A stretch of 64,000 nucleotides of DNA from Anaerolineae bacterium (GCA_035529315.1 DATKWZ010000015.1:22955-86954); one strand, 5' to 3'. Shown: positions 4,034 through 54,512, counted from the stretch's first letter. Made by a program: numbers and translations. The notes: generated by a model from the sequence alone, not told the origin.

Positions 4034-4035
4034 CA

Positions 4036-5086: not shown

Positions 5087-5101
5087 AAATATTACCATGA
5101 T

Positions 5102-7112: not shown

Positions 7113-7245
7113 GTCGTGAAAGCGTTACGCAGCGGAGCGATCAACATCTCAGACACTATGCGTGAGTGGCAGCGCGAGCAAGAACTGCCCCAAGAATGTG
7201 TCTTCTGCAGATCGACATCTGATCCCAAGGTCACGGGGCGGCCCG
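7113..7245 (+). pseudogene. Frameshifted HNH endonuclease fragment joined in frame to the tnpA fragment
   Basis: REWQREQELPQECVFC (CxxC), followed in the +1 frame by HLIPRSRGGP (HNH 'DH-x-IP-x-S-x-GG' motif); visibly more GC-rich than its flanks. Confidence 0.5.
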
Positions 7246-7290
7246 AGTTTGATACTTTTGATGTCAACAAGAACAAAATTCACACACTCA

Positions 7291-8415: not shown

Positions 8416-8705
8416 TTCTCATGCAGGTAGGTTTGCATATCACAAATTTTAAAGAGTTTCAATTTGTTATCTGAAGGGCGGTTTTTATTCTTTCGTCAAT
8501 TTGAAGGATTCAGGATATTTTTCACACATTAAAACGTTGTGGTGGCGAAGGCCGGGTTACAGTATAGTACGCTGACAATAATTTTACCTGACAGGACAAA
8601 TTGTTTAGATAATATCCCCTCTATATGAAAAAAATTAAGGATAGGATATTAGATTTGAATTTGTCGGCTAAGCGTTCTGCTTTTCTTCGGGGAACGGGTT
8701 TTTTG

Positions 8706-8780
8706 TGGTGATCCCAAGGGGAATTGAACCCCTGTTGCCGGCGTGAGAGGCCGATGTCCTAACCGCTAGACGATGGGACC
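8706..8780 (-). tRNA. tRNA-Glu (anticodon CTC)
   Basis: GGTCCCATCGTCTAGCGGTTAGGACATCGGCCTCTCACGCCGGCAACAGGGGTTCAATTCCCCTTGGGATCACCA: 75 nt cloverleaf, loop CT-CTC-AC, encoded CCA. Confidence 0.95.
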
Positions 8781-8870
8781 ATTTATTGAAGTGTCTCTTT
8801 GTGGTGATAAGTATTGAACTTAGACAATTTTGTCAAATATTATTTAAAAAGCATTTCCCAAAGATCTCTT

Positions 8871-16077: not shown

Positions 16078-17847
16078 ATGCTGGATACAAATGCAGTTGA
16101 GCTAATTTTAAATGGGATAGGGGCCTCTCCGGGCATATGTATAGGAAAGGCTTATTTGGTCGATAAAGAAGGGGTCAATGTCGTCAGGAAATATTTTATC
16201 GAAAAAGAGAACCTGCGGCGTGAGGTAAAGCGTTTCAAGGCCGCCGTAAAGAAAGCAAATGATGAACTCAGGGTAATTATTAAAAATTCCAATGAAGATT
16301 TGCGCCAGCAGAGTTATATTCTCGAGACCCATATCGTGATACTAAAGGACAAGATGCTGTATGGCAAAACAATTGAAACCATTGAAGATGAAGGGATAAA
16401 TGCGGAATGGGCTCTGAAGAAGGTGGTGTCAAGCTTGAAATCGATGTTTCAAAATATGTCTGATCCTTATTTAAAGGAAAGGGCCGCAGACATCGTGCAG
16501 GTGTCCGACCGTGTAATGAAAAATCTGATCGGCGCGGAAGCGGTCAATATCGCTGATATTTGCAAGAGGGTCATACTTATCGCCCATGATCTTTCACCTG
16601 CTGAGACCAGCCAGATACAATTGGAAAAAATTAAAGGCTTTGTTACCAATCGTGGAGGAAAGTCATCACATACCGGTATAATCGCCCGGACTCTTGAAAT
16701 ACCGGCTATTTTAGGGCTTGATCAGGCAACAGGAATAATCCAAAACGATGATCTGGTTATAGTTGACGGCACTACCGGCACAGTAGTCGTTCATCCAACA
16801 GAAGAGACACTGCTCAAGTATGAAGAACGTAAAATCAAATATGCAGAATACAGAGTTGCCATTGCCAGGGAAAGCCATCTTATAGCTGAAACAACTGATG
16901 GATTTAAACTGCCTGTTATGGGCAATATTGAGCTGCCCGAGGAGGTGGTTTCCGTTATCGACCATGGTGGTGACGGTATCGGTCTGTACAGAACCGAATT
17001 TCAATATTTAAACAGTTCTGTTTTTCCAAGTGAAGAGGATCTGTTTGATAAATACATGGATGTGGTGGAGGTAATAGCGCCAAAGCCTGTGACTATCCGC
17101 ACTCTTGATATAAACGGTGATAACGCGATAGCCCATTTTTCCAAGCATGATGAGGCCAATCCTGCTCTTGGGCTTCGCGCAATCAGGTATTGCCTGCAAA
17201 ATCCTGAGGTTTTCAAGACTCAGATCAGAGCAATATTAAGGGTTGCCGCATATGGCAATGTCAGAATCCTGATCCCCATGATATCAAGCTATGATGAGGT
17301 CTGCGAAACAAAAAGGATTTTAAGCGAAGTTGCTGATTCCCTGGATAAAGAAGGAGCGGTCTTTAACAGAGATATTGAGGTTGGGATAATGATAGAGGTC
17401 CCTTCGGCTGTGACCATGGCGGATGTGCTGGCAGAAAATGTTGATTTTTTCAGCATAGGGACAAACGATCTTATTCAGTATTCACTGGCGATAGACAGGG
17501 GGAACAGCAGGGTCGCCTATCTTTATAATCCGCTTCATCCCGCTATTATACGTGCGATTAAACATGTTGCCGATGTGGCGCGTGAAAAAGGGATAAAGGT
17601 CTTTATGTGCGGTGAGATGGCCAGTGACCCGATCTACATGCCTATACTTTTAGGTTTGGGTTTGGATGAATTGAGCATGAACCCTCAATCAATACCTGCT
17701 GTAAAGAGCATGGTAAGATCGCTTAACATAGGGGAGGTCAAGCTCTTTATGCAGGATGTTCTTAAACAAACCTCGGCCACCGCTATAATGAAATTAGTGC
17801 AGGATAGATATGGCAGCATTCTTTATGATAAAATCTACCACGAATAG
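16078..17847 (+). CDS. ptsI: PTS enzyme I
   Basis: GGKSSHTGI phospho-His, GIGLYRTE, EANPALGLRAIR, GIMIEVP, FFSIGTNDLIQY, MCGEMA. Confidence 0.95.
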   Translation: MLDTNAVELILNGIGASPGICIGKAYLVDKEGVNVVRKYFIEKENLRREVKRFKAAVKKANDELRVIIKNSNEDLRQQSYILETHIVILKDKMLYGKTIETIEDEGINAEWALKKVVSSLKSMFQNMSDPYLKERAADIVQVSDRVMKNLIGAEAVNIADICKRVILIAHDLSPAETSQIQLEKIKGFVTNRGGKSSHTGIIARTLEIPAILGLDQATGIIQNDDLVIVDGTTGTVVVHPTEETLLKYEERKIKYAEYRVAIARESHLIAETTDGFKLPVMGNIELPEEVVSVIDHGGDGIGLYRTEFQYLNSSVFPSEEDLFDKYMDVVEVIAPKPVTIRTLDINGDNAIAHFSKHDEANPALGLRAIRYCLQNPEVFKTQIRAILRVAAYGNVRILIPMISSYDEVCETKRILSEVADSLDKEGAVFNRDIEVGIMIEVPSAVTMADVLAENVDFFSIGTNDLIQYSLAIDRGNSRVAYLYNPLHPAIIRAIKHVADVAREKGIKVFMCGEMASDPIYMPILLGLGLDELSMNPQSIPAVKSMVRSLNIGEVKLFMQDVLKQTSATAIMKLVQDRYGSILYDKIYHE

Positions 17848-24981: not shown

Positions 24982-25893
24982 TCAGAAAACTACGACCCGA
25001 TTCCTTCCCTCTTCTTTTGCCCTGTACAGTGCCTTATCCGCGCATTTGATCAGGGTCTTGGCATCAGCGATCTCCGGGTGGGGAAAGCTGACAACTCCTA
25101 CGCTGATGGTCACTGTCAGAACCGTATTTTGGCTGTCTGCCTGAAACTTATGCTGCGCTACAGCCTTCCTCAGCCGCTCTGCAAGCATAACGGCTTCCTT
25201 TGGTTCAGTATGATACATAAGCAGAGCAAACTCCTCTCCTCCATATCTGGCCGACAGATCACTATTCCGTATTAATTCACGGATTAAATCACCAAGTGTT
25301 TTAAGGACCATATCCCCGGTCTGGTGACCATAAGTATCGTTGAATTTTTTGAAATGATCTATATCAAACATCACGCATGAAAGAGATTCGTGGTAACGGG
25401 CGGCTTTTTGAAAATCCCTTGAGATAGTTTCTTGAAAATACCGGTGATTGTACAGGCCTGTCAGGCCATCACGATTAGCCATTTCTTTAAGCTGTCTATT
25501 TTTTTCTTTAAGGCTTTCGTGAAGCTCCCTGATCTGCAGGTGGATATTAACTCTGGCTATCAGCTCCCCTTCGTCAAAGGGCTTGGTAACATAGTCTGAG
25601 GCCCCCATCTCCAGCCCGCGCACCTTGTCCGCTGCTTCAGACTTGGAGGTGAGCATTATAACAGGTATCTCCGACGTGGCATCCCCTTTCTTGATTCGTT
25701 GACAAACCTCATATCCATCTATCCCTGGCAGGATCAGATCCAATAGAATCAAATCAGGATGTTGCTTTGCGGCTATTTCCAACCCTATAGTTCCATCCTC
25801 GGCCGAAAGGACCTGATGGCCTTTCTTGCTCAGGATAGTCTTTGCTACATGCAATATCAGTTTGCTGTCATCGATTATCAGAATGCTGGCCAT
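24982..25893 (-). CDS. Response-regulator diguanylate cyclase (REC-GGDEF, WspR/PleD-like)
   Basis: IIDD/LLDLILP/K receiver; DGLTGLYN, DIDHFK, RNSD I-site, RYGGEEF. Confidence 0.93.
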   Translation of the reverse strand: MASILIIDDSKLILHVAKTILSKKGHQVLSAEDGTIGLEIAAKQHPDLILLDLILPGIDGYEVCQRIKKGDATSEIPVIMLTSKSEAADKVRGLEMGASDYVTKPFDEGELIARVNIHLQIRELHESLKEKNRQLKEMANRDGLTGLYNHRYFQETISRDFQKAARYHESLSCVMFDIDHFKKFNDTYGHQTGDMVLKTLGDLIRELIRNSDLSARYGGEEFALLMYHTEPKEAVMLAERLRKAVAQHKFQADSQNTVLTVTISVGVVSFPHPEIADAKTLIKCADKALYRAKEEGRNRVVVF

Positions 25894-25921
25894 ACCTTAA
25901 GTCCTGTTTTGCTTTGCAATC

Positions 25922-25976
25922 GGTCGAGTAGTTAAGCACTTGACCATTTCCCTGCTCGACCACTCGACTACTTGAC
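25922..25976. repeat. Inverted array of ~8-bp units between cheB and the DGC gene
   Basis: GGTCGAGTAGTTAAG ... CTTGACC...CTCGACCACTCGACTACTTGAC. Confidence 0.45.
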
Positions 25977-27011
25977 ATTGTTGAGAAGAATAGCCGGGAT
26001 ATCTTCCGGAGAGGCAACTGCATCCACAATGCCCCGCTTAATGGCTGCTCGCGGCATCCCGAAAACAACACAGCTCGCCTCGTCCTGGGCAATAGTATAA
26101 GCCCCCGCCTTTTTCATTGCAACCAGTCCGTCAACCCCATCATTTCCCATTCCGGTCAATATTATGCCAACCGCATTTGGACCGGCGCTTTCCGCAACCG
26201 AGTGGAATAGCACATCTACCGAGTGGCTTACATTTATCAAGGGATGTTGTGTGGACGAGGTTTTGTCGAGCCGGATTATATAACCAGCTCCATCCCGGAC
26301 CACTCGCATATGTCTTCCCCCGGGTACAATTAAGACTCTGCCCTGATTTACGCTGTCCATGTCACGTGCTTCCCGCACCTCAAAAGGGAGGAGGCTGTTG
26401 AGCCTCTGTGCAAAGGCCAGTGTGTATTGTGCTGCCATGTGTTGCGCAATCACAATACCCAGAGTCTGAAAAGAAATACCGCAAAGGAGCTTATTAATGG
26501 CCTGAGGTCCACCAATGGACGCTCCGATGGCAATGAGTTTGTGCGCAATTGAATGTGGTACTTTTTCGATCTTTATCGGCGTTTTACGCCACAAAAAAAG
26601 GGGTTTGACCTGAGCCTGCCTTGCAGCCCGGATCTTGTTGACTATTTCGTCGCGTAATGACGTAAAACCTTTTTCTACGTCCTGAGACGGTTTGGTTACA
26701 AAATCAACAGCCCCCGCTTCAAGAGCCTCCATGGTTCTCATGCTGTTCTTACGAGTATAAGAGCTGATCATGATCACCGGAATAGGGGAGTAGCTCATAA
26801 GGCGCTTTAAAAAGGTGATGCCGTCCATACGAGGCATTTCAATATCGAGAGTAATGACATCAGGCTTATGCTCAATGATTAAATCCTTGGCCTCAAACGG
26901 ATCGGATGCAACTCCCACTATGTCTATATCGGGTTCTCCGGAAAGAATACGCCTAAGAATCAACTGCACTATAGGAGAGTCATCTACAATAAGTACGCGT
27001 ATCGGTTTCAT
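25968..27011 (-). CDS. cheB: Chemotaxis methylesterase (REC-CheB)
   Basis: TLDIEMP receiver, GASIGG (Ser), QHM (His), SVDVLF, LTGMGNDG (Asp), FGMP. Confidence 0.95.
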   Translation of the reverse strand: MKPIRVLIVDDSPIVQLILRRILSGEPDIDIVGVASDPFEAKDLIIEHKPDVITLDIEMPRMDGITFLKRLMSYSPIPVIMISSYTRKNSMRTMEALEAGAVDFVTKPSQDVEKGFTSLRDEIVNKIRAARQAQVKPLFLWRKTPIKIEKVPHSIAHKLIAIGASIGGPQAINKLLCGISFQTLGIVIAQHMAAQYTLAFAQRLNSLLPFEVREARDMDSVNQGRVLIVPGGRHMRVVRDGAGYIIRLDKTSSTQHPLINVSHSVDVLFHSVAESAGPNAVGIILTGMGNDGVDGLVAMKKAGAYTIAQDEASCVVFGMPRAAIKRGIVDAVASPEDIPAILLNNVK

Positions 27012-27014
27012 ATA

Positions 27015-27605
27015 CTAAAATAAAATAACGGACCCTGATGGCACAGCCCGTCTTTTGTGTAAGACCATGCCCTTATATGTCCTCTCCTTATCAAAAATTT
27101 TCTGATTTTTTTTCACATCGAACTGTTTCAACAAGACTTTTGCCGTGTCTGTAAAAAAGAGGATTTTTCTGCCGCAATATCCACCTAAATCTTCACTTTG
27201 TACAGGTATTCCCTCCAGTTCGAGGAACTTTTTTGCAAAATGGATATTTGATCCTGTTATATCACCGTCACTTCTTCGGAATTTTAGAACGTTTCCACCA
27301 CCAAATATCTTGGCTATAAGATTCTCTCTCCTTGTCCCGTATTTAATGAATTCTCCGATGAGAAGCTCCATTGCATACATGCCATATCGCCCCAATTTTG
27401 ATGTAAGGATTTCATCCCGATGGATCATGCCGGGCAAAAGGTAGTGATTCATTCCCCCAATTTTTTTTTCAATATCGTAAATACAGACGGCAATGCATGA
27501 CCCAAGAACCGTATAAAGGATTTCTCCATCTTTTGAAGCAAAATATTCTCCTGGGCCGAGAATAATCACCCTTTTTTTATACCTTTGGCTGTAAAATCGC
27601 CGCAC
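27015..27605 (-). CDS. cheD: Chemoreceptor glutamine deamidase
   Basis: TVLGSCIAVC, GGMNHYLLP, AKIFGG, EDLGG..GRKI. Confidence 0.93.
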   Translation of the reverse strand: MRRFYSQRYKKRVIILGPGEYFASKDGEILYTVLGSCIAVCIYDIEKKIGGMNHYLLPGMIHRDEILTSKLGRYGMYAMELLIGEFIKYGTRRENLIAKIFGGGNVLKFRRSDGDITGSNIHFAKKFLELEGIPVQSEDLGGYCGRKILFFTDTAKVLLKQFDVKKNQKIFDKERTYKGMVLHKRRAVPSGSVILF

Positions 27606-27609
27606 AATC

Positions 27610-28455
27610 TTATCCTTTTTTACGATAGATCGCTCTTTCTATTAGTTCAAAGCGATCATCAATCCCTAAAAGCGACTCGGAAAGACCGAGACACAAGTAT
27701 CCTTTTGGTTCAAGAAGGTGATAGAATTGATCTGTGACTTTTTTCTTTGTCGCAGAATCAAAGTATATCATTACATTGCGACAAAAAATCATATCTATGG
27801 GCCCTTTAAGCAGGTTTGCAGACATCAAAAGATTGAGTCGCCTGAAAATCAATCTTTCTTTCAAATTCTTTTTGATACAAAAGACATCCTCGCCGCCGCT
27901 CCTTTCCTTGCGAAAGTACTTTGCAAGATAAGTCGGCGGAATTTCGGCAACCTGATCGGCTCTATATTTCCCAAGGTAAGCGATCTTCAGAGAACAAGTA
28001 TTTACATCAGTGGCCAGCATCTTGATATCCCAGGATATATCCACATTAGCCATTTCATAAACAAGCATTATCAGACTGTAAGGCTCCTGTCCGGTGGAAC
28101 ACCCGGAAGACCATATCCGGATACGTTTTTTTTCCATTTTTCGCCAAACTATCTCTGGAAGAATGCGCTTGTGTAAAAGCTCAAGTTGCTGCTTTCCTCT
28201 GAAAAAGTCGGTCTGGTCAATAGTAATGATGTTGATCAGATGCCGCAACTCTCTCGCCACTTCGGGTCTAAGGAGATAGTGGTAGTAATCAGAATAAGAT
28301 GAAAAGCCAATATGTTGCAACCGGCGAGACAGCTTCAGGCCAAGCATCTGCCTCCTCCCTTGCCGGATGGAGATTCCCACCTCCTTCTTCACAAGGCTGC
28401 GGAACAGATTAAAATCTTTTTCGGATATTTCCGGGAGTATTTTATGCTGGGGCAT
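27610..28455 (-). CDS. cheR: Chemotaxis methyltransferase
   Basis: TDFFR, IWSSGCSTGQEPYS, ATDV, IFCRNVMIYFD, LGLSESL. Confidence 0.95.
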   Translation of the reverse strand: MPQHKILPEISEKDFNLFRSLVKKEVGISIRQGRRQMLGLKLSRRLQHIGFSSYSDYYHYLLRPEVARELRHLINIITIDQTDFFRGKQQLELLHKRILPEIVWRKMEKKRIRIWSSGCSTGQEPYSLIMLVYEMANVDISWDIKMLATDVNTCSLKIAYLGKYRADQVAEIPPTYLAKYFRKERSGGEDVFCIKKNLKERLIFRRLNLLMSANLLKGPIDMIFCRNVMIYFDSATKKKVTDQFYHLLEPKGYLCLGLSESLLGIDDRFELIERAIYRKKG

Positions 28456-28459
28456 GGTT

Positions 28460-28909
28460 CTAAGCCGAATCTACCAGTTCGAGCTCTTCAGGACTTAACA
28501 GACGATCTATGTCCAGGATAATTATCATTTCGTCTTGCTTTTTCCCGACCCCCTTTAGGTACTCCCGTCGGAGGTTCGATGGAAGGTTCTTTGTTGTTTG
28601 AAACTCTTCAGGGAGGATCTCCAGCACATCCAAAATTTCGTCAACTATGACGCCCATAATCCGCCCAGCAATTTCAACAACAATAATCACATGAAAACTT
28701 GTATATTCCTTTGCAGGAAGATTGAACTTTTCCCGTAGATCAAAAACAGGAATGACAGCTCCGCGTAAGTTGATGATCCCCTTGACAAACTCGTCCACTT
28801 GCGGCAGAGGGGTGACCTTCCGGTAGCTTAAGGTCTCTTTTATTTTTAATAGTTCAATCCCGAAAATCTGCTGATTTATTGAAAAGACAACGTATTGGGT
28901 TTTTGCCAT
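28460..28909 (-). CDS. cheW: Chemotaxis coupling protein
   Basis: VKGIINLRGAVIPV, MGVIVDEI. Confidence 0.93.
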   Translation of the reverse strand: MAKTQYVVFSINQQIFGIELLKIKETLSYRKVTPLPQVDEFVKGIINLRGAVIPVFDLREKFNLPAKEYTSFHVIIVVEIAGRIMGVIVDEILDVLEILPEEFQTTKNLPSNLRREYLKGVGKKQDEMIIILDIDRLLSPEELELVDSA

Positions 28910-31212
28910 CAGAATTCCTTAAATCCTCCTTCAAACTCTTTTTCCAACAAATCTTCATTCAGGTCATCTAAAGGTGGTTTGGTCAGCAGATCCTCATACA
29001 GCGGGGTGGGAAGAGCTTTAGACTCCCGGCGATTTTTGAGAGCCGGCAGCGGGTCCTTTTCAATTTTCAGATCCTCCTCCTTTTGCTCCTCCTTGTCTCC
29101 AAGGATAAATAGCCCGGTTATATTATGAAGCTGCTGTGTTTTTTCCGAAAGCTTTCGGGTCTCCTGCGAAATCTCTTCCACAAAATAGGCGTTCTTTTCG
29201 TTCACATTGCTCAGCTCCTGGGTCCCCTGGCTGATCTGTTCGATCCCCTTCGAGCTTTCCTCATTCCCCAGGGTGACCTCTCCCAATGCATCTGAGACCT
29301 GCATTGATGTTTGCACGATCTCGGTAAAACATTCTTTCAGTTTGTCCACCCACTGCCCGGTTGAGCTCACCTTGCTTATAATTTCCCGGACCAGTTTTTG
29401 AATATCCTTGGATGCAGCCCCGCTCCTTTTCGCAAGATTTCGTATTTCATTGGCTACGACCGCAAATCCGCGTCCTTGTTCTCCTGCACGAGCAGCCTCA
29501 ACAGCCGCATTGATGGATAGCAGATTCGTCTGGAATGTGATTTCATTGATCAGATCCACCATCTCAACAATCTTCTGGCTCGCATTTGACATATCAACCA
29601 TTGCATTAGCGGTCTTTTCCACCTCATTTGCCCCCTCCCGGGCCACCTTCACAGCATCTTTGGAAAGGGAATCCGCATGGCGGGTATTTGTCAAATTTCC
29701 AGCGGTGTTTGAGACAAGCTCCTCCAGAGTAGCGCTTATCTCCTCCATGGCTGATGCCTGCTGCTCGGTCCGCTTGGAAAGGTTCTGATTTCCCTCAGAG
29801 ATATGCCTAACACCCTTGATTACCGGAATAATGTGATTCTTGACCTGGGAGATCAAATTCACTATACTGTCGAACGTCTCATTGATCTTTTTGGTCATCA
29901 CATCCATGGCATCTTCTGTTCCGGAGAGAGTTCCGCGCATGGTAAGATCGCCCTTGGCTACCTGCTCGAGCATCTTGGAAAGGTCATCTACCTTTTTCTC
30001 CAGCTCCTGTTTGGCTTTGCCTTCCCGGAGATATGCCTCCTGAAGGCTCTTTTCCGCCTCCACTTCTGTAGTCAGATCGCGAATAATCTCAAACGCCCCC
30101 AGTACCTTTCCTGAAGAATCCTTCAGAATGGAAGCGATGGACATCGCCGGGATCTCATTTCCCTTCTTATCCGTCAGAGTCATGCGTGTGGCTTTCGCAA
30201 CCTCACCGGTATCCATGGCCTTCTTTAAAGGACAATCCTTGCAGGCAGAGGTATGGAAGACTTCATAACATGGCTTCCCTATGGCCTTATCCGGCGACAG
30301 GCCGGCCATGCGCGCTGCGTTTTCGTTAATAAAAGTCATGTTCAGCTCCGGATCGACCATGAAAAACGGATCGACGATCCCAAGTTTCAGGCTGTTGGCA
30401 TATTCCATCCGGTCGCGTATGCTCTTCACCATCTGGTTGAAGTTGCGGGACAGGCTCCCGATCGAGTCTCGATGGTTATCAACAGCTTCCACCGTAACAT
30501 CTCCGGCAGCCACCAGGCTGGTTTTTTCTTTCAGCAGTTGAATTCGCCGCGAAACAAGCCTGGAAAAAAAGAAATTTATGAAGATCACAACTCCTATGAG
30601 GGCAGCCATAAAATAGACAATAAGTCTGTTTCTTGTATGATTGATGGCATCAAACACATTTTTGACAGGCTGTTTGATAACCATTACGCCGAGGACTTTT
30701 CTGCTGGCTCCATGACAGTGGTAACAGGCTGATTCATTAAGAATCGGCTTAATGGTTACCAGAAAAGGGGCTTTGTCCTCTGTTTCGGAAAATGATATTC
30801 CCGGAGCTTTGCCGGTTGCCAGCGCTTGGACCAAGGCATTGCGCGACTCGTTTCCATGGAGATACTTTTCCATGTTTCTGTCGACGCGTTCTTTTTCCGA
30901 TGCATAGGATATGTTCTGGTGAAAGTCTGCGATGTAAACCTGAACGCCACCCATGCGCTCTTTTACGTCTTTCATCTGCTCTTTCACTGTCTTTTCGTCC
31001 CCAACTGACATGGGAAACCTGATGGCGCTGTAAACATTGTCCAGCATGTGATTTGAAAACTCAGACGCCTGGTTTATAGCGGTTTTTTTATGGAGTATAA
31101 GGCTTTGATAGAGACTGAGCCCCATAAAAACAGACACTACCATGATAGTTGCAACAAATATCTTGGTTCGCATCCGCATATTTTTAAAAAACTTATTGAT
31201 AGTATTTCTCAT
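28909..31212 (-). CDS. Methyl-accepting chemotaxis protein with periplasmic c-type heme motif, HAMP, PAS and C-terminal pentapeptide (DcrA-like)
   Basis: Two TM helices flank a periplasmic domain containing CYHCH; HAMP; PAS with [15 protein letters not shown]; signalling tip [27 protein letters not shown]; ends GFKEF. Start taken at ATG 31212 after GGAGG. Confidence 0.92.
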
Positions 31213-31228
31213 TGATCTCCCCTCCAGT

Positions 31229-31690
31229 TCAATGGGAACCGGCATAGATTATCGGTTTGTAACGGAAAGCCCCCACTCTTTCCTTGGTATGGCACTTCTG
31301 GCAAACATCTATAGTCACGTTCCTTATGATTCGAGCCGGATCCTGCGTATCCATATGGAGTTTGCCGGGACCATGACAGACCTCGCATCCTGCGTTTTTG
31401 AGTTCAGGCGTCTGCTTTGGATCAGTAAAACCACCCGGTTCGCCGTAGGCGGTAGTATGGCAGCCATAGCATCCCCTGATTTCATCCTCGGTAAGACCCT
31501 TTTTCATCCTCTCTATGCTCTTAAAGGAACGGCTTTTTCTGGCATGACTCAGGAAGGACTCATATTGTACTTCGTGGCAGGACCTGCACGATGCAGACCC
31601 AACATAAGTATTTGTCTCCTGCTCCTGCGCTCCTACAGGCAAGGAAAAAAGAAAAACCAGCAAAATGCCGCGCCATTTCTTTATTTTCAT
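31229..31690 (-). CDS. Secreted tetraheme cytochrome c (c554-like family)
   Basis: Signal peptide and four CxxCH motifs (CRSCH, CYGCH, CEVCH, CQKCH); YVGS motif before heme 1. Confidence 0.9.
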
Positions 31691-33816
31691 ACTGCACCCC
31701 CCGGCAATGAATGTTTGAAAAAAATTTCCTCAAGCCCAAGAAGGTCGAGGACAATGGCCGCAGAACCATCTCCCATGATAGTGGCGCCGCTCACTCCTTT
31801 GACGCTCTGATAGTTTGATTCAATGCTCTTGACTACCACCTGATAAGAAGCAAGCACTTCGTCAAAGAGGATTCCGAACTTTTGTTTTCCGGTATCAAGA
31901 AAGACCGTAGCCATCCCCGTGCGGTCGTTCTCCGGCGCAATCGTCCCGTAGATACGGCATAAACTCATAAGGGGAAGATACTCACCCCTGAACCGGTAGA
32001 CCTTCTCATCCGCGCCAAAGGTTCGAATGCGTTCTGCATCAAACCTTCCTACTCCTATTATCCCCCAGAGAGGCACCAGATAAGATCTGTCCTGATCCCT
32101 TACGTGCAGAGCTTCGGTGAGGGCAAAGGTCAGAGGAAGAGCCAGAGTAAATACGGTTCCCTTTCCCTTTTTCGTCTCGATTTGTATTGACCCTCCAACC
32201 AGCTCAACCTGTGTCTTGACAACATCCATGCCAACCCCTCTTCCGGAGAGTTCGGTAACGCTTGATGCCGTAGAAAAACCAGGGTGGCAGATGATCTCCA
32301 CAAGTCTGTCGTTGTCGAGCTTTTCACCTGCTTTATCGAGCCCCATTTCCAGAGCACGGCGGCGTATTTTTTCTATATTGAGACCGCGACCATCGTCATA
32401 AATTTGTATGAATATCTTTCCACCCTTCTGGTATGCCTTAAACTCGATTATTCCTTCTGCGGGTTTTCCTGCCGCCACCCGCTCTTCAGGTGGCTCTATA
32501 CCATGATCCACACAGTTCCGAACCAGATGCTTTAATGGATCTGCTATATATTCGATTACCTCTTTATCCAGTTCCGTATCAATACCTGACAGAATAACCT
32601 TTATCAGCTTCTTTTGATCATAGGCGGCATCTCTAACAAGCCTCTGAAACCGGAGGAAAGTTCCTTTTAGAGAAAACATCCGGACGCCGGCTACCTGCTC
32701 CTGAAATTCACGATTCACCTTGAGCAGGTTTTCTATCTCTTGTTCGATTTTATTCCTGGAAAGATCCCCTTCTCTGATAACGAAACTCTGCACTCTGGAG
32801 AGATTAATTCCGATTTCCTCGGCAAGGTTGACCAGATGGTCTATCTTTTTCACATCTACCCGCACGCTTGTCTTTCTATAGGCAGAACGGCTTTCCTGCT
32901 GCAAAGAAATCATTTTCTGGACAGCTTCTTTATCAATTTTCCCCTCATCTACCAGAATCTCTCCAAGCTTCTTCTGCTTATCAAGAGCGCTTTTCAAATC
33001 TTCTTTGGTAATACCGCCGCTTTCGACAAGGGCTTCACCCAGAGGCATCTCTCCTAATTGGAGCTCGACTCCTCCTTCACTGTGGCGATCGGTTATCTCA
33101 TCAATTACTATATTATGTTCATCTTTGACAAACATAAAGACATCTTTGACTTCCTGGATAGATGCGGTAGTCTTCAGAATGACTCGCCATGAAATATAAA
33201 GTTTATAAAAATCCATCCCTTTATAGTGGGGAAGTTCAGAAGTATCCGCCGCTACTTCCACACATTCTCCCAACTCTGTCAGGTTTAGCAGTAGAAGAAG
33301 AGGATCATGGCCGGAATTGAAAAGGTCCTTTCTAAACTTAAGATCGATATGATAATAATGCCAACTCTTGTCCTTGGCAGAATCAGGGACTGCTTCCCTG
33401 ATCGTTTCCTCTTTCCCGGAACCCCCCTCTATACCCAAAAAACGGTTTAACTGGGCTTTGCGAGTATTTAAAACACCAGCATCAATATCTTCACTACCAC
33501 CAGCACACCTGTCCACTATGGCGCGGATAAAATCAACATCCTCCAGAAGAAAGGAGATAAGCGGCCTGGTTATGGAAAGTTGATTATTTCTGATCCGGTC
33601 CAGAAGGTTTTCGATAAGGTGAACGTATCCGGAAAGAGTATTAAACCCTACCATGGCGGAACCACTCTTTAAAGTGTGAATTGCTCTAAAAAGTTCTTCC
33701 AGGTCGGGCCCGGGTCCGGGAGCAGTCTCTATGCGCAGCAGGCTCTCTTCTGATCTTTTGAGCAGGTCTTCTGTTTCAGCAAAAAAGACCTGCAATGTCT
33801 CTTCATGTTCATTCAT
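31687..33816 (-). CDS. cheA: Chemotaxis histidine kinase
   Basis: Hpt FRAIHTLKSG, HLVRNCVDHGIE, DDGRG, GRGVGMDVV, C-terminal CheW domain. Confidence 0.96.
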   Translation of the reverse strand: MNEHEETLQVFFAETEDLLKRSEESLLRIETAPGPGPDLEELFRAIHTLKSGSAMVGFNTLSGYVHLIENLLDRIRNNQLSITRPLISFLLEDVDFIRAIVDRCAGGSEDIDAGVLNTRKAQLNRFLGIEGGSGKEETIREAVPDSAKDKSWHYYHIDLKFRKDLFNSGHDPLLLLLNLTELGECVEVAADTSELPHYKGMDFYKLYISWRVILKTTASIQEVKDVFMFVKDEHNIVIDEITDRHSEGGVELQLGEMPLGEALVESGGITKEDLKSALDKQKKLGEILVDEGKIDKEAVQKMISLQQESRSAYRKTSVRVDVKKIDHLVNLAEEIGINLSRVQSFVIREGDLSRNKIEQEIENLLKVNREFQEQVAGVRMFSLKGTFLRFQRLVRDAAYDQKKLIKVILSGIDTELDKEVIEYIADPLKHLVRNCVDHGIEPPEERVAAGKPAEGIIEFKAYQKGGKIFIQIYDDGRGLNIEKIRRRALEMGLDKAGEKLDNDRLVEIICHPGFSTASSVTELSGRGVGMDVVKTQVELVGGSIQIETKKGKGTVFTLALPLTFALTEALHVRDQDRSYLVPLWGIIGVGRFDAERIRTFGADEKVYRFRGEYLPLMSLCRIYGTIAPENDRTGMATVFLDTGKQKFGILFDEVLASYQVVVKSIESNYQSVKGVSGATIMGDGSAAIVLDLLGLEEIFFKHSLPGGAV

Positions 33817-34198
33817 CAGTAGTCCACACCAGTTTCTTTATTGCCCACAAAAATTTCTCGGGGCGGAAAGGCTTTGCCAGCCATCCGGCAGCCCCGGCAG
33901 CTCTTCCCTTTTCTATCATTGACTCTTCCGATTCCGTGGTAAAAACAAGTATGGGAAGAAAGCGAAAATCGCCTTTCTTGACCTCTTCTATGAAAGCAAT
34001 ACCATCCATTTGAGGCATATTGACGTCGGTGACAATCAGGGAAGGAATTTGCCCCTCTTCCTTCATGTTTGCCAGCTTTTCAAGAGCATCTTTCCCATTT
34101 TCAGCCTCTGTTACCTTATATCCGGCATTACTAAGGCAAAAGGAAACCGACGATCGAACAGTAGGAGAATCATCTACCACCAGGATAAGTTTTTCCAT
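33809..34198 (-). CDS. cheY: CheY-like response regulator
   Basis: VVDD, VTDVNMPQMDG, FTTE, LAKPF. Confidence 0.9.
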   Translation of the reverse strand: MEKLILVVDDSPTVRSSVSFCLSNAGYKVTEAENGKDALEKLANMKEEGQIPSLIVTDVNMPQMDGIAFIEEVKKGDFRFLPILVFTTESEESMIEKGRAAGAAGWLAKPFRPEKFLWAIKKLVWTTDE

Positions 34199-34212
34199 GT
34201 TCCTCCAATCAA

Positions 34213-34509
34213 CTAATCTACCAGGGCTGTTTTGAGACCGCTTATTTCCAGAATCTTTTCCAGCTTAGGAGACAATCCCAGCAACCTCCATTCGGTCTCG
34301 GGTTTCAATGACCTCTTGAAGGCGATAAGGAGCTGCAACGACGCAGTGTCTGCAAATGTTACCCCTGACATACAAATGGAAATTTTCTTTGCGTGAGCAA
34401 GAGAAATATCAAGAAGAAGCTTGTTCAGGTAGTCAATGCCATGTATGGTCAACTCTCCTTTAAACTGAAAAACACCTTCGGCATCCTGGCTTACAGTAAA
34501 CTGCGACAT
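34213..34509 (-). CDS. STAS-domain protein
   Basis: FKGELTI, MSGVTFADTASLQLL, LEISG; typical first gene of cheY-cheA operons. Confidence 0.82.
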   Translation of the reverse strand: MSQFTVSQDAEGVFQFKGELTIHGIDYLNKLLLDISLAHAKKISICMSGVTFADTASLQLLIAFKRSLKPETEWRLLGLSPKLEKILEISGLKTALVD

Positions 34510-38305: not shown

Positions 38306-40945
38306 CTATCCACGTGGTTGTGGGAACCAGGAGCTTATGTCTTTTAGCATTTTTTCCTTGTAATAAGCTGCTCTGGCAGGGTTGCCCATTATCATATCAA
38401 GCTGCCTTGTATGCATTGTAAGATATCCAAGTATCTTAAGACGTTTTATTAAAAAAGATTTATCATATCCCTCGATAGTTGCATTCATGTAATCTTCATG
38501 TATTTGTACCTGAAAATCATATTTGCCTAAAATTTCTTTTATAAGCTGCATTCTGCGAAGCTTTCTGGTAAGGTCCGCAGCCCCGCCCTTGAAACAGAAT
38601 TTTATGTAATTTTCTCTGGACTCATCACTGATAAAAGTCTGTACAACCGAATAATGATAACCGAACCGGCAGCTTAGATTGCAAAAGTTTTTTGAAATAA
38701 TGGCGCAGTCATTCTGAGAATAATTTGATTGATTTGATGGGGATAAATTACGATTCATGGTAGATTCGACCATTATGGACATCAATCCTTTAGTGTCAAC
38801 AGGAGGCGGGCCCTCCCATTCTACAGCGGTTATTCCCTCCCATAGAGCAAGCATCGGGACAGATGCTATATTTTCAAGTATTACAGTATTTTTTTCCACT
38901 GCTCCTTTTAAACCATCTCCCAAATCAATAAGCATCCACTGGGTTGGGAGACCATTTGCAACCAGCCTTTTCCCTGTATTTATATTTCTGTTCTTTTTGC
39001 CATAATCAAACATTTCTTCTACGGCCTTTTCATGGCATAAGCGGGTAATGTCGTGATATGTGTGGCAGCCGTCAGGCGTAAAATTGCCGGCTTTTGGATC
39101 AGTAAGATTCAGCGGGGTGATATGCTTCAGCATTTTTTTCAAGGTTATATAAACAGGGCTTCCTTTAATTATACTGGTATGTTGCGCGCGGTTTGCTTTT
39201 AATAATGCCTCGGCTTTTTCTTCGTATACTTTCCGTGCAAAGGCATCAACCGTGATAATAGATTTATTTTTAATTTTGCTGGTTGCTTCAATGGTATCAA
39301 AGAGCGCCGGAATACCGAATTCTCTTGCAACGGTAGCCAGATGACCGGTAATTCCTCCACGATCTGTTACAATTGCGGCAGCTTTATTCAATATCGCCGC
39401 CCATTTAGGCAGGGATTTTTTTGCCACTAAAACAGAGCCTCTGGGAAATTTATAAATTTCTTCGTCCGAGTTCACGATAAATGCCGGCCCGCATGCTACG
39501 CCCGGGCTTGCTGTAATGCCCCCACTGATTATCACACGGTTATTAACCTTTATTTCTGAGTCATCTTTATATTTATTGTCTTCCTTTATTATCTGTTTCA
39601 GCGGACGGGTTTGCAGTATCTTTATCTGACTGTTTTTTTCTATAGTCCACTCGATATCTTGTGGCGTTTGAAAGTGCTTTTCAAGCATAACAGCCTGTTT
39701 TGCCAGAAATTGGGCCTGTAAATCCGTGATAGCCGGCAGGTTTTTTTCTGTATCAGGCATTTTGACGGTTTGGAGATTTTTGTTGGAAAAAGTTAAAGTT
39801 TCCTGATCTTTGGCATGAATCTCTTTTTTAACCACTTGAAATGGCTGCTTCCTGGAAACCACAAATAAATCAGGTGATGTGCTCCCCTCGACCACTGATT
39901 TGCCTAATCCTTTAACTGCATTGATGAATATTTGATTATTGTGGATGTTGCCTGGATCTCTTGAATACATAACTCCACTGGAAACAGCTTCAACCATTGC
40001 CACACAGCCAACGCACATGACAATGTCTTCATCGCTAAAGCCCTTATTGAAACGGTATGTAATAGCCCATGGAGAATATTTGCTGGCAAGAACTTTTTTA
40101 TATGAGTTAATAAGTTCTTTAGAGCTTACATTCAGTTCTGTGTGATATTGACCTGCAAAGGATGCTTCCTGGCTGTCTTCGCCCAGGGCGCTGCTGCGCA
40201 TTGATACTTTGACATCTTTTTCTGTTTTTTCTTCCAGGCACTGGTATTCCGCAAGTATTGCTTTTTCGAGTTCTAAAGGAACACTTGATTGCATTATAAG
40301 CTTTTCGATATTTGCGCTGGCATTTCCCAGCATTGTTATATCTTCAATATCAACTGATTGAAGCTGCTGGCTGATTTTTTTTTGGAGAGAACCATGATTC
40401 AGGAACAGATTATATGCAGAGGTTGTAATAACAAAACCATGCGGAACACTAAGGTGTTCCATGTCCATAATTTCGCCTAAATTCGCCATCTTACTGCCAG
40501 TGTGCTTTGCGCTGTCTTTATTTATATTTTCAATCGATATAACCAGTCTGCCTTCGTCTGCCTCTTCCTTTTTTTCTATTATTTGATTTATTTTATATTG
40601 AATATCGGCAAAAGCATGGTAGAGCGTTTCATAACGATTGTCGGAAAGCTCATTTATTTTTTCAATGAGTTTATATATATTTACTGAAATGGATATGCAG
40701 TTTGCACGAATGAATTCCATGCTGAATTTTTTGTTTCCCTGCAGTGCCAATTCCATTTCCGACATAATCTTAAGAATTGTATTATTGATGCTTAAAAGAC
40801 TTTTGAAATTCCAGTACTTTGTTTTGAAGAGGGAGCGGATAACATCGTCGGGCGATTTTTCGGAAGTTGGGCCTTCCCCTTTTTTACCCGAAAAGATTTT
40901 TTTTATTGATTTCCTTAATCCAAACATCTTTACTCCAGACTTCAA
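38306..40945 (-). CDS. PEP-synthase-like protein (ATP-grasp + phospho-His swivel + non-canonical C-terminal domain)
   Basis: GSKMANLGE, MRSSALGED..SFAGQY, DIEW, LQTRP, GGITGHLATVAREFGIP; pyruvate-binding barrel motifs (NPxLGxRG, SIGxNDLxQ, CG) not found. Confidence 0.85.
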   Translation of the reverse strand: MKSGVKMFGLRKSIKKIFSGKKGEGPTSEKSPDDVIRSLFKTKYWNFKSLLSINNTILKIMSEMELALQGNKKFSMEFIRANCISISVNIYKLIEKINELSDNRYETLYHAFADIQYKINQIIEKKEEADEGRLVISIENINKDSAKHTGSKMANLGEIMDMEHLSVPHGFVITTSAYNLFLNHGSLQKKISQQLQSVDIEDITMLGNASANIEKLIMQSSVPLELEKAILAEYQCLEEKTEKDVKVSMRSSALGEDSQEASFAGQYHTELNVSSKELINSYKKVLASKYSPWAITYRFNKGFSDEDIVMCVGCVAMVEAVSSGVMYSRDPGNIHNNQIFINAVKGLGKSVVEGSTSPDLFVVSRKQPFQVVKKEIHAKDQETLTFSNKNLQTVKMPDTEKNLPAITDLQAQFLAKQAVMLEKHFQTPQDIEWTIEKNSQIKILQTRPLKQIIKEDNKYKDDSEIKVNNRVIISGGITASPGVACGPAFIVNSDEEIYKFPRGSVLVAKKSLPKWAAILNKAAAIVTDRGGITGHLATVAREFGIPALFDTIEATSKIKNKSIITVDAFARKVYEEKAEALLKANRAQHTSIIKGSPVYITLKKMLKHITPLNLTDPKAGNFTPDGCHTYHDITRLCHEKAVEEMFDYGKKNRNINTGKRLVANGLPTQWMLIDLGDGLKGAVEKNTVILENIASVPMLALWEGITAVEWEGPPPVDTKGLMSIMVESTMNRNLSPSNQSNYSQNDCAIISKNFCNLSCRFGYHYSVVQTFISDESRENYIKFCFKGGAADLTRKLRRMQLIKEILGKYDFQVQIHEDYMNATIEGYDKSFLIKRLKILGYLTMHTRQLDMIMGNPARAAYYKEKMLKDISSWFPQPRG

Positions 40946-45873: not shown

Positions 45874-47385
45874 ATGCAGGAAAAAAAGATATTTCAAAAA
45901 AAGTTTGCTTTGACTACTGCTGACAGGGGGTTGCTTGAACGACCGCAATTTAGCTTTCGTTTGCACATGTCTCTGGTGTTCATTTTTTTTTCCTTATTTT
46001 CGATAGCAATTATTGTAGGTTCAGTTATAGCCATAAACAGGATACAGAAAAAACTGTACTTTGTTCAAGCCTCTGAAAGATACCTGTTTGAAATTGAACA
46101 GGCAAGGAGATGGGAAAAAAATTACTTTTTGTATGGCACTAATCTCGAAAATGCGATTCAATGCGCTTATAATGCAAAATCCCTTTTATCACAGAACTTG
46201 CAGAAATTAATAACTGTTTTATCTGCAGAACAGACAGAAACTATTGTTGAGCATCTTGATAGATACAGTAGTCTGTTGCAGGAACTTATGCTTTTGGAGA
46301 AAAACAGGATTGATAGTCGTGAAAAAAAGAGCAAAATTGAGACTTCCTTAAGAAAATATGGCGCTGAAATGGTTAAGGTAGCGGCTGCTCTGGTTTATAA
46401 GGAGCAGGATTCCATGAATGCAATGCTTCACCTTATCCAGAGAATACCCCTTTACAGCCTTGTAGTTGTTTTGTTAATAGGAGTATTCGTTGCACGTTTT
46501 CTTGTGCAAAGATTGATAAAACCGCTTAAACATCTAATTGAATGCACTCAGAGAATAGCAAAAGGAGATTTTTCACCGCTTAAACCAATTCGTAAGTACC
46601 GTGATGAGTTTACGACAGTGGAGGTGGCTATTAATCGTATGCTTAAGCAACTTAAATCACACGAAGCTGCGATGGTGGAATCACATAAACTTAGAGCAGT
46701 TGGAACTCTGACAGCCGGGGTTGCTCACGAATTAAACAACCCTCTTAACAATATAATGCTCACGGCACATGCAATGCTTGAGGATCATAAGGAGTTGTCA
46801 GAAGATGAACTACTTGAAATGCTAAACGATCTTATTGGCGAAGCCAACAGGTCCAGGAGTATAGTTCGCAATCTTCTGGATTTTGCAAGAGAAAGCGAAT
46901 CTGTTTCTGAACCTCTTGATCTTGGAGCGTTGGTTAACGATACTATTAAGCTGGCGCTCAATCAGGTAAAAGTTTCCGGAGCAAAAATAGAAACTCAAAT
47001 TCAGCCCAACCTACCCAAAATCCGCGGTGACACCCAGCAATTAAAGCAGGTATTTTTAAACTTAATCCTTAATGCATTAGATGCTGTTGACAAAAATGGA
47101 AAAATTATAATAAATGTTAAAGAATCTGAAATATCAGGATTCCTGGCCGTTCAGATAGAAGATAATGGATGTGGAATACCTGCCCATATTCTGCCTAATA
47201 TATTTGATCCGTTTTTTACGACAAAAGGACCGGGTAAAGGTACAGGGCTTGGTCTTTCTGTTTCACATGGAATCATTATAATGCACGGTGGACAGATCAA
47301 TCTTGAAACCGAAGAAGGAAAATATACAAGATTTACCGTAACTCTCCCTTCTAGAAATATTCCTGCGGATTTTAATAAAACCTGA
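45874..47385 (+). CDS. Membrane sensor histidine kinase (HAMP-HisKA-HATPase)
   Basis: Two TMs, HAMP, VAHELNNPL, NLILNA, DNGCGI, FDPFFTTK, GTGLGL. Confidence 0.93.
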   Translation: MQEKKIFQKKFALTTADRGLLERPQFSFRLHMSLVFIFFSLFSIAIIVGSVIAINRIQKKLYFVQASERYLFEIEQARRWEKNYFLYGTNLENAIQCAYNAKSLLSQNLQKLITVLSAEQTETIVEHLDRYSSLLQELMLLEKNRIDSREKKSKIETSLRKYGAEMVKVAAALVYKEQDSMNAMLHLIQRIPLYSLVVVLLIGVFVARFLVQRLIKPLKHLIECTQRIAKGDFSPLKPIRKYRDEFTTVEVAINRMLKQLKSHEAAMVESHKLRAVGTLTAGVAHELNNPLNNIMLTAHAMLEDHKELSEDELLEMLNDLIGEANRSRSIVRNLLDFARESESVSEPLDLGALVNDTIKLALNQVKVSGAKIETQIQPNLPKIRGDTQQLKQVFLNLILNALDAVDKNGKIIINVKESEISGFLAVQIEDNGCGIPAHILPNIFDPFFTTKGPGKGTGLGLSVSHGIIIMHGGQINLETEEGKYTRFTVTLPSRNIPADFNKT

Positions 47386-47423
47386 GATAATAAAAGCAAA
47401 TTGCTGTTGGAGGAAATTTATCG

Positions 47424-48800
47424 TTGAAAAAAAACGATGAAAACATATTGATGCGTATTGCGGTTATTGATGATGAGCCTCTGGTTTTGCAAAATTTGCA
47501 GAGAAAAATTGGTAAAAGTGGCTACCAGGTTGAAACCTTTATAAACCCCATCAAAGCAATCAAAAGAATGGAAAACCAGCCTTTTGACATTGTTCTAACC
47601 GATTTTCGCATGCCTGAAATGGATGGTATGCAGATTTTAGAGAAGATCAAGGAAAATTATCCCAAAACCGAAGTTATAATTATTACAGGCTATGCATCAA
47701 TAGAAAAGGCGGTTGAAGCAGTTAAAAGAGGTGCTTTTTATTACCTTGAAAAACCTTTTACTCCTGAACAGGTTATGCTGATAATAAAGCGTGCTGCTGA
47801 TAAAGTGCTTCTGGTCCATGAAAACAAGCGTCTTAAAGAGGATCTTCTTAAAAAAGATAATGTGAGAAAAATTATTGGTGTCAGTTCTCCTGTACGTGAG
47901 TTGATTAAAATTATTCAAAAGGTTTCCAAGGTGAACTGTAATGTTCTTATTCAGGGCGAAAGCGGAACAGGCAAGGAGTTAACTGCAATGGCCATACATT
48001 TTGGCAGCCCCAGAAAGGATAAACCTTATATCAGCTTTAATTGCGGCAGTTTTACAGAGGAGTTGATAGCCAATGAACTTTTTGGCCATGAAAAGGGGGC
48101 TTTTACAGGCGCAGAAAGCATTAAGGTTGGTTTGCTTGAGGCAGCTCAGGGCGGAACTGTTTTTCTTGATGAAATAGGGGAAATGCCTCTTTCCATGCAG
48201 GTAAAGCTGCTCAGGGTAATTCAGGAGAAAAAGCTGCTTAGAGTAGGTGGATCTCATCCGGTTGACCTTGATATAAGGGTGATATCAGCCACAAATAAAG
48301 ATCTGGAAAACGAAATCAAGGCCGGACGGTTTAGAGAGGATCTTTATTTTCGTTTAAAGGTAGTCAAAATACGCGTTCCCTCACTCAGGGAAAGGAAAGA
48401 AGACATATCTCTGCTAATAGAGCATTTTATAGATAAATACAACAGGCTTTACAATAAAAGGATTAAAGGGTTCTCAAAACGAGCCAAAGAGGTCTTAATG
48501 AAATATTCTTTTCCAGGGAATGTCCGAGAACTTGAACACATGGTCTCAAGCGCCATTGCTCTGGGAGAAGGAGTCTGGATTGATGAAAACGAACTGCCTG
48601 AGGATCTTGACCACCTGGTAGTAGAGACAGTTGAAAACAGAGAGCTGCTTTCCCTTTATGAAGAAGAAAAAGCACATATAATCAGGGTGCTTGAGGCCAC
48701 TAATTATAATAAGGCAAGGGCTTCAAAAATTCTTGATATCCCAAGAACAACTTTGTGGAGAAAGACAAAAAAATACGGTATCATGGAAACTTTGGGATAA
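47424..48800 (+). CDS. Sigma54-dependent response regulator (NtrC family)
   Basis: REC; GESGTGKE, GAFTGA, FLDEIGE, FREDLYFRL, FPGNVREL; HTH RTTLWRK. Confidence 0.95.
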   Translation: MKKNDENILMRIAVIDDEPLVLQNLQRKIGKSGYQVETFINPIKAIKRMENQPFDIVLTDFRMPEMDGMQILEKIKENYPKTEVIIITGYASIEKAVEAVKRGAFYYLEKPFTPEQVMLIIKRAADKVLLVHENKRLKEDLLKKDNVRKIIGVSSPVRELIKIIQKVSKVNCNVLIQGESGTGKELTAMAIHFGSPRKDKPYISFNCGSFTEELIANELFGHEKGAFTGAESIKVGLLEAAQGGTVFLDEIGEMPLSMQVKLLRVIQEKKLLRVGGSHPVDLDIRVISATNKDLENEIKAGRFREDLYFRLKVVKIRVPSLRERKEDISLLIEHFIDKYNRLYNKRIKGFSKRAKEVLMKYSFPGNVRELEHMVSSAIALGEGVWIDENELPEDLDHLVVETVENRELLSLYEEEKAHIIRVLEATNYNKARASKILDIPRTTLWRKTKKYGIMETLG

Positions 48801-54511: not shown

Positions 54512-54512
54512 G

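Follow-up and report, generated by a model that had tools for sequence, protein, structure and literature searches.

A recurrent gene pair of a c554-like tetrahaem cytochrome and a haem-c Cache receptor suggests a two-protein periplasmic sensor in an F7-like chemosensory operon

The window analysed here, a stretch of 64,000 nucleotides (nt) of DNA from an Anaerolineae bacterium (GCA_035529315.1, DATKWZ010000015.1:22955-86954), carries on its minus strand, from 34509 to 24982, ten co-directional genes that make up one tightly packed chemotaxis-like operon. Their order is STAS, CheY, CheA, cytochrome, methyl-accepting receptor (MCP), CheW, CheR, CheD, CheB and REC-GGDEF diguanylate cyclase. Within this operon the gene for a small secreted tetrahaem cytochrome lies directly upstream of the gene for a receptor whose periplasmic domain carries a predicted haem c, and some 70 other species have the same pair, irrespective of the pathway that the receptor serves. 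This recurrence suggests a hitherto undescribed sensor made of two proteins, one that responds to a gas or to the redox state of the periplasm. The components are known, namely haem-c Cache receptors, c554-like cytochromes, F7-like operons and the routing of che signals to a cyclase. A description of the conserved cytochrome-sensor gene pair was not found in the literature we searched, which was limited and is no proof of novelty. A reading made from the sequence alone (hereafter the sequence-only reading) had already linked the cytochrome, the receptor and the cyclase, proposing that redox state sets the level of cyclic di-GMP (c-di-GMP). All the features it described are present, on the minus strand, and it had left the STAS, CheY, CheW, CheR, CheD and CheB genes unmentioned.

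The evidence for the pair comes from relatives of the locus. One genome per species was scanned with the cytochrome, and the best 80 of at least 567 stretches encoding a relative were kept. These 80 loci hold 81 cytochrome genes, and their open reading frames (ORFs) were searched with the window's proteins, a gene being counted as the next one if it lay within 400 nt. Two cytochrome genes stand at contig ends, leaving 79 that could be assessed, and for 70 of these the next gene encodes a homologous haem sensor. The fusion partner of this sensor is an MCP at 27 loci and a hybrid histidine kinase at the remaining 43; the other nine cytochrome genes have no adjacent sensor. The synteny search proposed in the sequence-only reading thus turned out in its favor: all 27 related che operons examined keep the c554-like cytochrome directly upstream of the haem-sensor gene, and its absence from orthologous operons, the outcome named there as a refutation, was not what we found. 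As in the window, cheA directly precedes the cytochrome in 21 of the 27 MCP-type loci. The kinase type, with the architecture sensor-HAMP-(PAS)-HisKA-HATPase-REC-REC followed by a REC protein and a REC-kinase (Pfam on representatives), is dominant in Nitrospirota and Thermodesulfovibrionia and is also found in Desulfobacterota. Loci L061, L078 and L082 show the order cheY-cheA-cheW-cytochrome-sensor, again with the cytochrome directly ahead of the sensor. The pairing persists across two phyla, at about 55% identity of the cytochrome and about 30% identity of the sensor, whatever lies downstream, and we regard an adjacency kept in spite of differing downstream genes as strong evidence for a functional pair, whatever it is that passes between the two proteins. 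In a tree of the cytochromes the che-linked and kinase-linked clades are separate. Moreover, L019 has tandem modules (2115-5255 and 6714-8845), of which one belongs to a che operon and one is of the histidine-kinase fusion type; both come with a cytochrome paralogue of their own that groups with its own module type. The split of the clades by partner and the pattern in L019 argue for cognate pairs rather than a shared carrier. That cytochrome and receptor work as a functional pair is well supported.

The receptor is laid out as a first transmembrane helix (TM1), a haem-c sCache sensor, a second transmembrane helix (TM2), HAMP, PAS, a HAMP-like segment, the signalling hairpin, a linker and a C-terminal GFKEF. 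By profile, alignment and structural model, its periplasmic domain is a member, with a predicted haem c, of the sCache_heme family of Geobacter GSU0582 and GSU0935. It scores 31.0 bits against PF21563 (cut-off 27), aligns by sequence with the structure of GSU0935 (PDB 3B42, E=6.7e-4), and is predicted by AlphaFold2 (AF2) as a single Cache fold (pLDDT 90) in which a helix at 161-167, bearing C163-H167, is inserted between strands. Foldseek matched this model to the WalK sCache domain, 3B42 (E=6.8e-7), 3B47, CitA and DcuS. The hydrophobic segments on either side were modelled as long helices (2-69 and 184-214), and the CYHCH motif lies between the two transmembrane helices, in keeping with the periplasmic location given to it in the sequence-only reading. 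That reading had compared the receptor with DcrA of the sulfate reducer Desulfovibrio vulgaris, an MCP whose periplasmic part bears a CxxCH haem. The likeness as a haem-c MCP stands; GSU0582 and GSU0935 (PF21563, 3B42) are demonstrably related and hence the nearer and better reference. They have in common with our receptor the PF21563 domain, a CxxCH on a short helix within the Cache fold, two flanking transmembrane helices and the fusion to an MCP. The receptor differs from them in three respects. Its motif is CxHCHG with an invariant extra histidine, whereas GSU0935 carries CQSCH at this position and lacks the extra histidine; it adds a cytoplasmic PAS domain with a cysteine triad; and it has a dedicated cytochrome gene directly upstream, no such partner being mentioned in the literature searched. 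A metagenome scan for Geobacter-type loci with the printed GSU0935 fragment gave no match.

Across 30 partner sensors, N159, C163, H165, C166, H167 and G175 are invariant, and the signature of partnered sensors is an invariant N..xCxHCHG together with a near-invariant PMxxGD. The extra histidine within CxHCH, His165 (30718-30720, minus strand), is invariant in cytochrome-partnered sensors and might serve in docking, in gating or as a ligand. On the cytoplasmic side, the PAS domain has a cysteine triad of the form C-x9-10-C-x2-3-C-P that is kept in orthologous MCPs and in PAS-bearing cytochrome-paired hybrid kinases, the third cysteine being lost in three orthologues. The triad may be a metal, Fe-S or thiol redox site, and it may provide the receptor with a second place of sensing, on the cytoplasmic side. 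The GFKEF terminus follows an acidic, proline-rich linker of about 60 amino acids (aa), and GF(E/K)E(F/Y) terminates all 20 complete orthologous MCPs. By its resemblance to NWETF-type pentapeptides, it is a probable tether for CheR and CheB.

The cytochrome has a Sec-type signal peptide, read directly from the sequence with cleavage before QE, and exactly four CxxCH motifs (CRSCH, CYGCH, CEVCH and CQKCH). It matches the Pfam family Cytochrome_C554 (PF13435) with 68.2 bits (cut-off 20.8, E=1.3e-18) and cytochrome c554 of Nitrosomonas europaea (PDB 1BVB, E=1.5e-10), its residues 29-111 aligning with c554 residues 5-97 over three CxxCH motifs and the CHGPG signature. The two proteins share PF13435 and this alignable region. 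They differ in that the mature protein measures about 125 aa here and 211 in c554 (1BVB/1FT5), in their C-terminal parts, which are unrelated by sequence, and in context, since our cytochrome is linked to a sensor and c554 to hydroxylamine oxidation. The family is compact (about 160 aa) and highly conserved, with more than 250 close homologues that fall into only 26 clusters (50% identity, E<=1e-30). Wherever they are aligned among 82 sequences, the four CxxCH motifs, H112 and the C-terminal H153 do not vary; one truncated homologue has a gap from position 94 on, which covers the last two motifs. No further histidine is invariant, and positions 49 and 149 are either His or Tyr. Because just two invariant histidines outside the motifs are available to four haems, at least one haem may lack a histidine as its distal ligand, a hint of unusual or open coordination.

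We propose that the operon encodes a non-flagellar F7-like pathway with a single dedicated receptor and a two-protein periplasmic sensing module, composed of the soluble tetrahaem c554-like cytochrome and the receptor's own haem-c Cache domain. The cytochrome would swap electrons with the general pool of periplasmic carriers and would dock on the receptor domain, thereby determining how the receptor haem is oxidised and ligated. The ensuing conformational change might travel through TM2, HAMP, PAS and the second HAMP-like segment to the signalling hairpin and alter the activity of CheA. Phosphorylated CheA could then pass its phosphate to CheY, CheB and the REC-GGDEF cyclase, so that c-di-GMP would track periplasmic redox state, and adaptation would be provided by CheR, CheB and CheD tethered at the C-terminal GFKEF. 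This proposal builds on the observed gene content and domain identities, on the conserved adjacency of cytochrome and sensor and on the conservation of the cyclase. We infer the redox nature of the cue and any role of the STAS protein. The likeliest reading, held with a confidence that is evenly balanced, is that the cytochrome sets the state of the receptor haem, and through CheA and the cyclase the level of c-di-GMP. More tentatively, and with somewhat less than even confidence, we extend the idea beyond this locus. The c554-like cytochrome and the CxHCH haem-Cache domain might be an unrecognised, widespread two-protein sensor of the electron pool that is plugged as a unit into chemosensory and hybrid-kinase pathways of Desulfobacterota and Nitrospirota. 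The cytochrome would then be both carrier and signal input, and respiratory electron flux would set c-di-GMP in the present case.

A number of observations, concerning in turn the sensing pair, the cue and the output, weigh against this proposal. We infer both the contact between cytochrome and receptor and the transfer of electrons between them, and the AF2 model of the cytochrome (20-sequence alignment) reached a pLDDT of 48, which makes it unusable for docking or for haem geometry. A reverse check with a sensor-domain profile does speak for the pair, the cytochrome gene being found immediately upstream in five of five more distant sensors (24-36% identity), but it is biased toward this subfamily by a profile built on cytochrome-linked sensors. 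These five were sampled from sensor-domain protein searches that returned short fragments (5 and 20 proteins), and one of the cytochrome copies is frameshifted in the assembly. Distances between cytochromes and between sensors correlate with r=0.85, a mirror-tree result that is uninformative because neighboring genes are inherited together.

A further point on the pair comes from the nine loci without an adjacent sensor (L006-L009, L013, L014 and L016-L018, from nine species). All of them occupy the window's own slot, with transketolase, GDT1, cytochrome and convergent pfp, and all nine che genes are absent. In DNA comparisons of L006 with L004 and of L008 with L010, one flank of the cytochrome gene cleanly lacked STAS-cheY-cheA and the other lacked everything from mcp to the cyclase gene. 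What remained was the cytochrome gene, beginning a few bases ahead of the start codon and running up to the stop codon. The junction between L008 and L010 has a 9-nt overlap. In the cytochrome tree the solo copies fall inside the che-linked clade at two or more separate points, which implies that nine genes were repeatedly lost and the tenth retained. A cytochrome that is kept alone works without the receptor and is not merely its accessory, and its co-location with the receptor could in part be convenient co-expression. These intact lone copies are the best argument for viewing the cytochrome as a general carrier of periplasmic electrons whose gene is only co-transcribed with those for sensing and which takes no part in sensing itself. 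Such a view also draws on the listing of c554-type cytochromes as conserved periplasmic carriers of syntrophic sulfate reducers, where they are regarded as general carriers (PMC10553843). However, a passenger would not be expected to keep its place immediately ahead of the sensor in two phyla, with three receptor architectures and in several che orders, its phylogeny would not track the type of partner, and two copies would not serve two neighboring sensors as in L019. We therefore think it very unlikely that the cytochrome has no sensing role. Lone retention fits a role as general periplasmic carrier (PMC10553843), and it also fits the idea that the sensor monitors a cytochrome that is itself at work in the electron pool. 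As a separate observation, several copies of a repeat of about 165 bp surround the transketolase/che locus, in L010 at 3590-3751, 5786-5948 and, inverted, 9734-9900, and in L008 at 1-168; the interval from cheA to the cytochrome gene is among its sites. This repeat may represent a small element, mobile or recombinogenic, that contributed to the loss of che genes.

As for the cue, haem II of cytochrome c554, a five-coordinate haem that binds nitric oxide (NO), is the one whose motif aligns with the second CxxCH of our cytochrome. Instead of redox state, the receptor may sense a gas, since the best-studied signalling members of the sCache_heme family, the name given in a 2026 preprint to the DUF3365/Tll0287-type family, are reported as NO sensors, and the signalling-fused domains tested so far behave in this way (PMC12889525). 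The ferrous receptor haem would then bind NO (or carbon monoxide or sulfide) with the same pathway output, and the cytochrome would keep the receptor haem in, or return it to, the Fe(II) state, or would bind or turn over the ligand at a five-coordinate, c554-like haem. Domains of the sCache_heme type that are fused to signalling parts have a high affinity for NO and are quick to autoxidise (PMC12889525), so that an NO-type sensor would need a reductant. The haem II alignment and the presence of only two invariant distal-histidine candidates for four haems are in line with gas sensing, and many partnered loci come from Nitrospirota, a nitrogen-cycling lineage. Conversely, the NO sensors tested are Pseudomonas proteins of another subfamily for which no cytochrome partner is reported, and the hosts of the present pair are mostly strict anaerobes of sulfidic sediments. 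Genes of NO metabolism are not conserved around either module type among the neighboring ORFs examined. The conserved neighbors of kinase-type modules, a P-loop ATPase (identified by motif), a thymidylate-synthase-like gene, a CBS protein and an ABC transporter, reflect lineage synteny only and include no nitrogen- or sulfur-oxide enzyme. Haem ligation is not deducible from sequence. We consider a gas cue unlikely, though it is the main rival of redox state as the input.

With regard to the output, the Wsp system of Pseudomonas has as its kinase WspE, a CheA-REC hybrid, together with two CheW-like proteins, and it lacks CheY, CheD and STAS. The sequence-only reading had likened the operon to Wsp, and the presumed output through a REC-GGDEF protein is indeed common to both chemosensory pathways. 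The composition is not Wsp-like: CheA carries no REC, CheW occurs once, and the operon includes CheY, CheD and STAS. An assignment to the Wsp (ACF) class was accordingly rejected on domain content. By gene order, the backbone resembles a stage 1 F7 chemosensory system instead. Such systems, described for Vibrio cholerae and Methylomicrobium, have the order anti-sigma antagonist, cheY, cheA, ..., receptor, cheR, cheD, cheB, with a dedicated haem-based receptor (Aer2) and a non-flagellar role (PMC7184735). The gene order and a dedicated haem-based receptor with a PAS/HAMP cytoplasmic part are shared with our operon. The receptor's hairpin, which follows the second HAMP-like segment after PAS, has a C-terminal arm of about 125 aa, or roughly 18 heptads, and would fit class 36H by this rough count, which is not profile-based. 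The stage 1 F7 systems differ in having two CheW proteins in place of one and a soluble receptor with haem b in place of a transmembrane one with periplasmic haem c. In addition, the REC-GGDEF protein here replaces the McpA-like receptor, second antagonist and serine phosphatase found there. These three were absent from the operon and from the remainder of the 64-kb window, where ORFs of at least 150 aa judged to be real genes were scanned with Pfam.

The cyclase closes the operon as the sequence-only reading had said, with the motifs RNSD-LSARY-GGEEF (the RxxD I-site standing five residues upstream of the active site) and intact REC acceptor residues D8/D9, D52, T82 and K104. All 16 orthologous operons checked end in REC-GGDEF with RxxD, GGEEF and the REC acceptor intact. 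By motif, this protein is predicted to be an active, feedback-inhibited diguanylate cyclase. Phosphotransfer from CheA to the cyclase is suggested by this conservation and by analogy with Wsp and with the Geobacter Esn network. In Esn, the MCP EsnA, the CheW EsnB, the CheA EsnC and the diguanylate cyclase EsnD are needed for electrode colonisation (PMC5585712). Esn, which belongs to an electroactive lineage, shares with the proposed pathway a chemosensory route to c-di-GMP; unlike our receptor, EsnA lacks a periplasmic domain and has a cytoplasmic GAF domain, and the esn genes are dispersed and have no cytochrome partner (PMC5585712). A related operon, L011, lacks the cyclase, and CheY and STAS are possible alternative or additional outputs. 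The main output might thus be CheY acting on a motility organelle encoded elsewhere, or STAS-mediated partner switching on a sigma factor, with the cyclase as a side branch or phosphate sink. This alternative concerns the output alone and is compatible with any model of the input. It would account for L011 and for the conservation of CheY and STAS as the first genes of the operon, the STAS gene keeping its first position in 15 related operons. It also agrees with a gene order that fits stage 1 F7 systems, which carry anti-sigma antagonists (PMC7184735), and Shewanella Che1 is reported to be linked to RpoS control (PMC9855816). We nevertheless judge it rather improbable, given that a REC-GGDEF protein with all catalytic and regulatory motifs closes 16 diverged orthologous operons and that the Pfam scan of the window revealed no motility gene, serine phosphatase or anti-sigma factor.

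Two-protein periplasmic sensors are known from TorT/TorS of Escherichia coli, with feedback by the cytochrome TorC, and from LuxP/LuxQ. In both, as in our proposal, a membrane sensor is modulated through contact with a soluble protein of the periplasm, and TorC shows that a c-type cytochrome can act on a sensor kinase. The families are unrelated, and those sensors lack haem; the accessory protein there is a binding protein or an apo-cytochrome and not a redox partner. Since the Geobacter structures of 2008 made them known, periplasmic haem-c sensor domains have posed the question of what they sense in the cell and by which route their haem is reduced or oxidised. A preprint of 2026 proposes NO as the cue (PMC12889525). 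A co-inherited, dedicated cytochrome partner makes the question concrete and testable, as only two small soluble proteins would have to be expressed and mixed to address it. Should the pair indeed report the status of the electron pool, it would form a direct molecular link from respiration to c-di-GMP or phosphorelay decisions. This would be relevant to its carriers, among them Nitrospirota, sulfate reducers of sediments and the syntrophic partners of archaea that oxidise alkanes. The gene pair could then also serve as a marker for annotating hundreds of genes now called hypothetical cytochromes.

The features of the operon are collected in Table 1. Adjacent genes overlap or are separated by at most 16 nt, with a sole exception of 74 nt ahead of the cyclase gene, and cheY and cheA overlap by 8 nt. 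The junctions around the cytochrome agree closely with the sequence-only reading: the cheA stop and the cytochrome start share ATGA, and the MCP stop and the cheW ATG overlap by 1 nt (TGATG). The cytochrome stop likewise lies just before the receptor gene as that reading held, at a distance of 16 nt instead of the 17 it gave; the interval, from the TGA to the ATG at 31212, contains the Shine-Dalgarno sequence GGAGGGGAG, and the mechanical ORF of the receptor begins earlier, at 31245. Domain E-values span 1e-12 to 1e-57 across the operon, and a chance pattern is thereby excluded.

Table 1. Positions in the window of the operon's genes and of domains and motifs of the receptor, in order of transcription.
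Feature	Position	Strand	Basis
STAS-domain protein (anti-sigma-factor-antagonist type), operon gene 1	34213..34509	-	Pfam STAS E=6.9e-12
CheY-like single-domain response regulator	33809..34198	-	Pfam Response_reg E=1.4e-26
CheA histidine kinase	31687..33816	-	Pfam: Hpt, dimerisation, HATPase_c, CheW-like; no C-terminal REC
Secreted tetrahaem c-type cytochrome, 153 aa, compact c554-like family	31229..31690	-	Pfam PF13435
Methyl-accepting receptor (MCP), 767 aa from ATG at 31212	28909..31212	-	Pfam MCPsignal, PAS_9, HAMP, PF21563
Periplasmic sensor domain, sCache_heme / Mcp40H-20_sensor type, about residues 40-200 of MCP	30613..31095	-	PF21563
CYHCH, predicted haem-c attachment motif of MCP	30712..30726	-	motif reading
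Cytoplasmic PAS domain of MCP	30070..30372	-	Pfam PAS_9 E=6e-15
C-terminal pentapeptide GFKEF of MCP	28912..28926	-	motif reading
CheW coupling protein	28460..28909	-	Pfam CheW E=1.8e-37
CheR methyltransferase	27610..28455	-	Pfam CheR E=8.5e-57 and CheR_N
CheD receptor deamidase	27015..27605	-	Pfam CheD E=5.4e-27
CheB methylesterase	25968..27011	-	Pfam REC and CheB_methylest
REC-GGDEF diguanylate cyclase, last gene, convergent with pfp	24982..25893	-	Pfam GGDEF E=2.2e-52, Response_reg E=8.2e-32

Upstream, the operon is bordered by genes for a GDT1-family membrane protein and transketolase, and downstream by the convergent gene for pyrophosphate-dependent phosphofructokinase (pfp). An AT-rich region of 114 nt precedes the STAS gene, and a scan for promoters and terminators gave a signal no better than in shuffled sequence. 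Among the matches listed, the nearest genomes are those of Candidatus Desulfaltia (Desulfobacterales), with protein identities of 87% for the cytochrome and 89% for transketolase. The Pfam scan of the remaining window revealed housekeeping genes, transporters and three sigma-54 two-component pairs, and no flagellar, pilus or further che genes, as the sequence-only reading had found for flagellar genes. The sigma-54-dependent systems form a cluster adjoining CitMHS/Na-sulfate-type transporters and consist of a HAMP kinase with an NtrC-type regulator (45874-48800), a second NtrC-type regulator (51583-52974), and a PAS kinase with an NtrC-type regulator and a REC protein (53351-56452). Two paralogous CxxCxxCC (PF03692) proteins, putatively Fe/Zn-chelating, are encoded on opposite strands (2354-3100 and 4036-4818) on either side of a short-chain dehydrogenase gene. 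Finally, the window has two PPDK_N/PEP-utiliser genes (38306-40945 and 62269-63957), similar to pyruvate phosphate dikinase or phosphoenolpyruvate (PEP) synthase, along with a gene resembling enzyme I of the phosphotransferase system (PTS) at 16078-17847.

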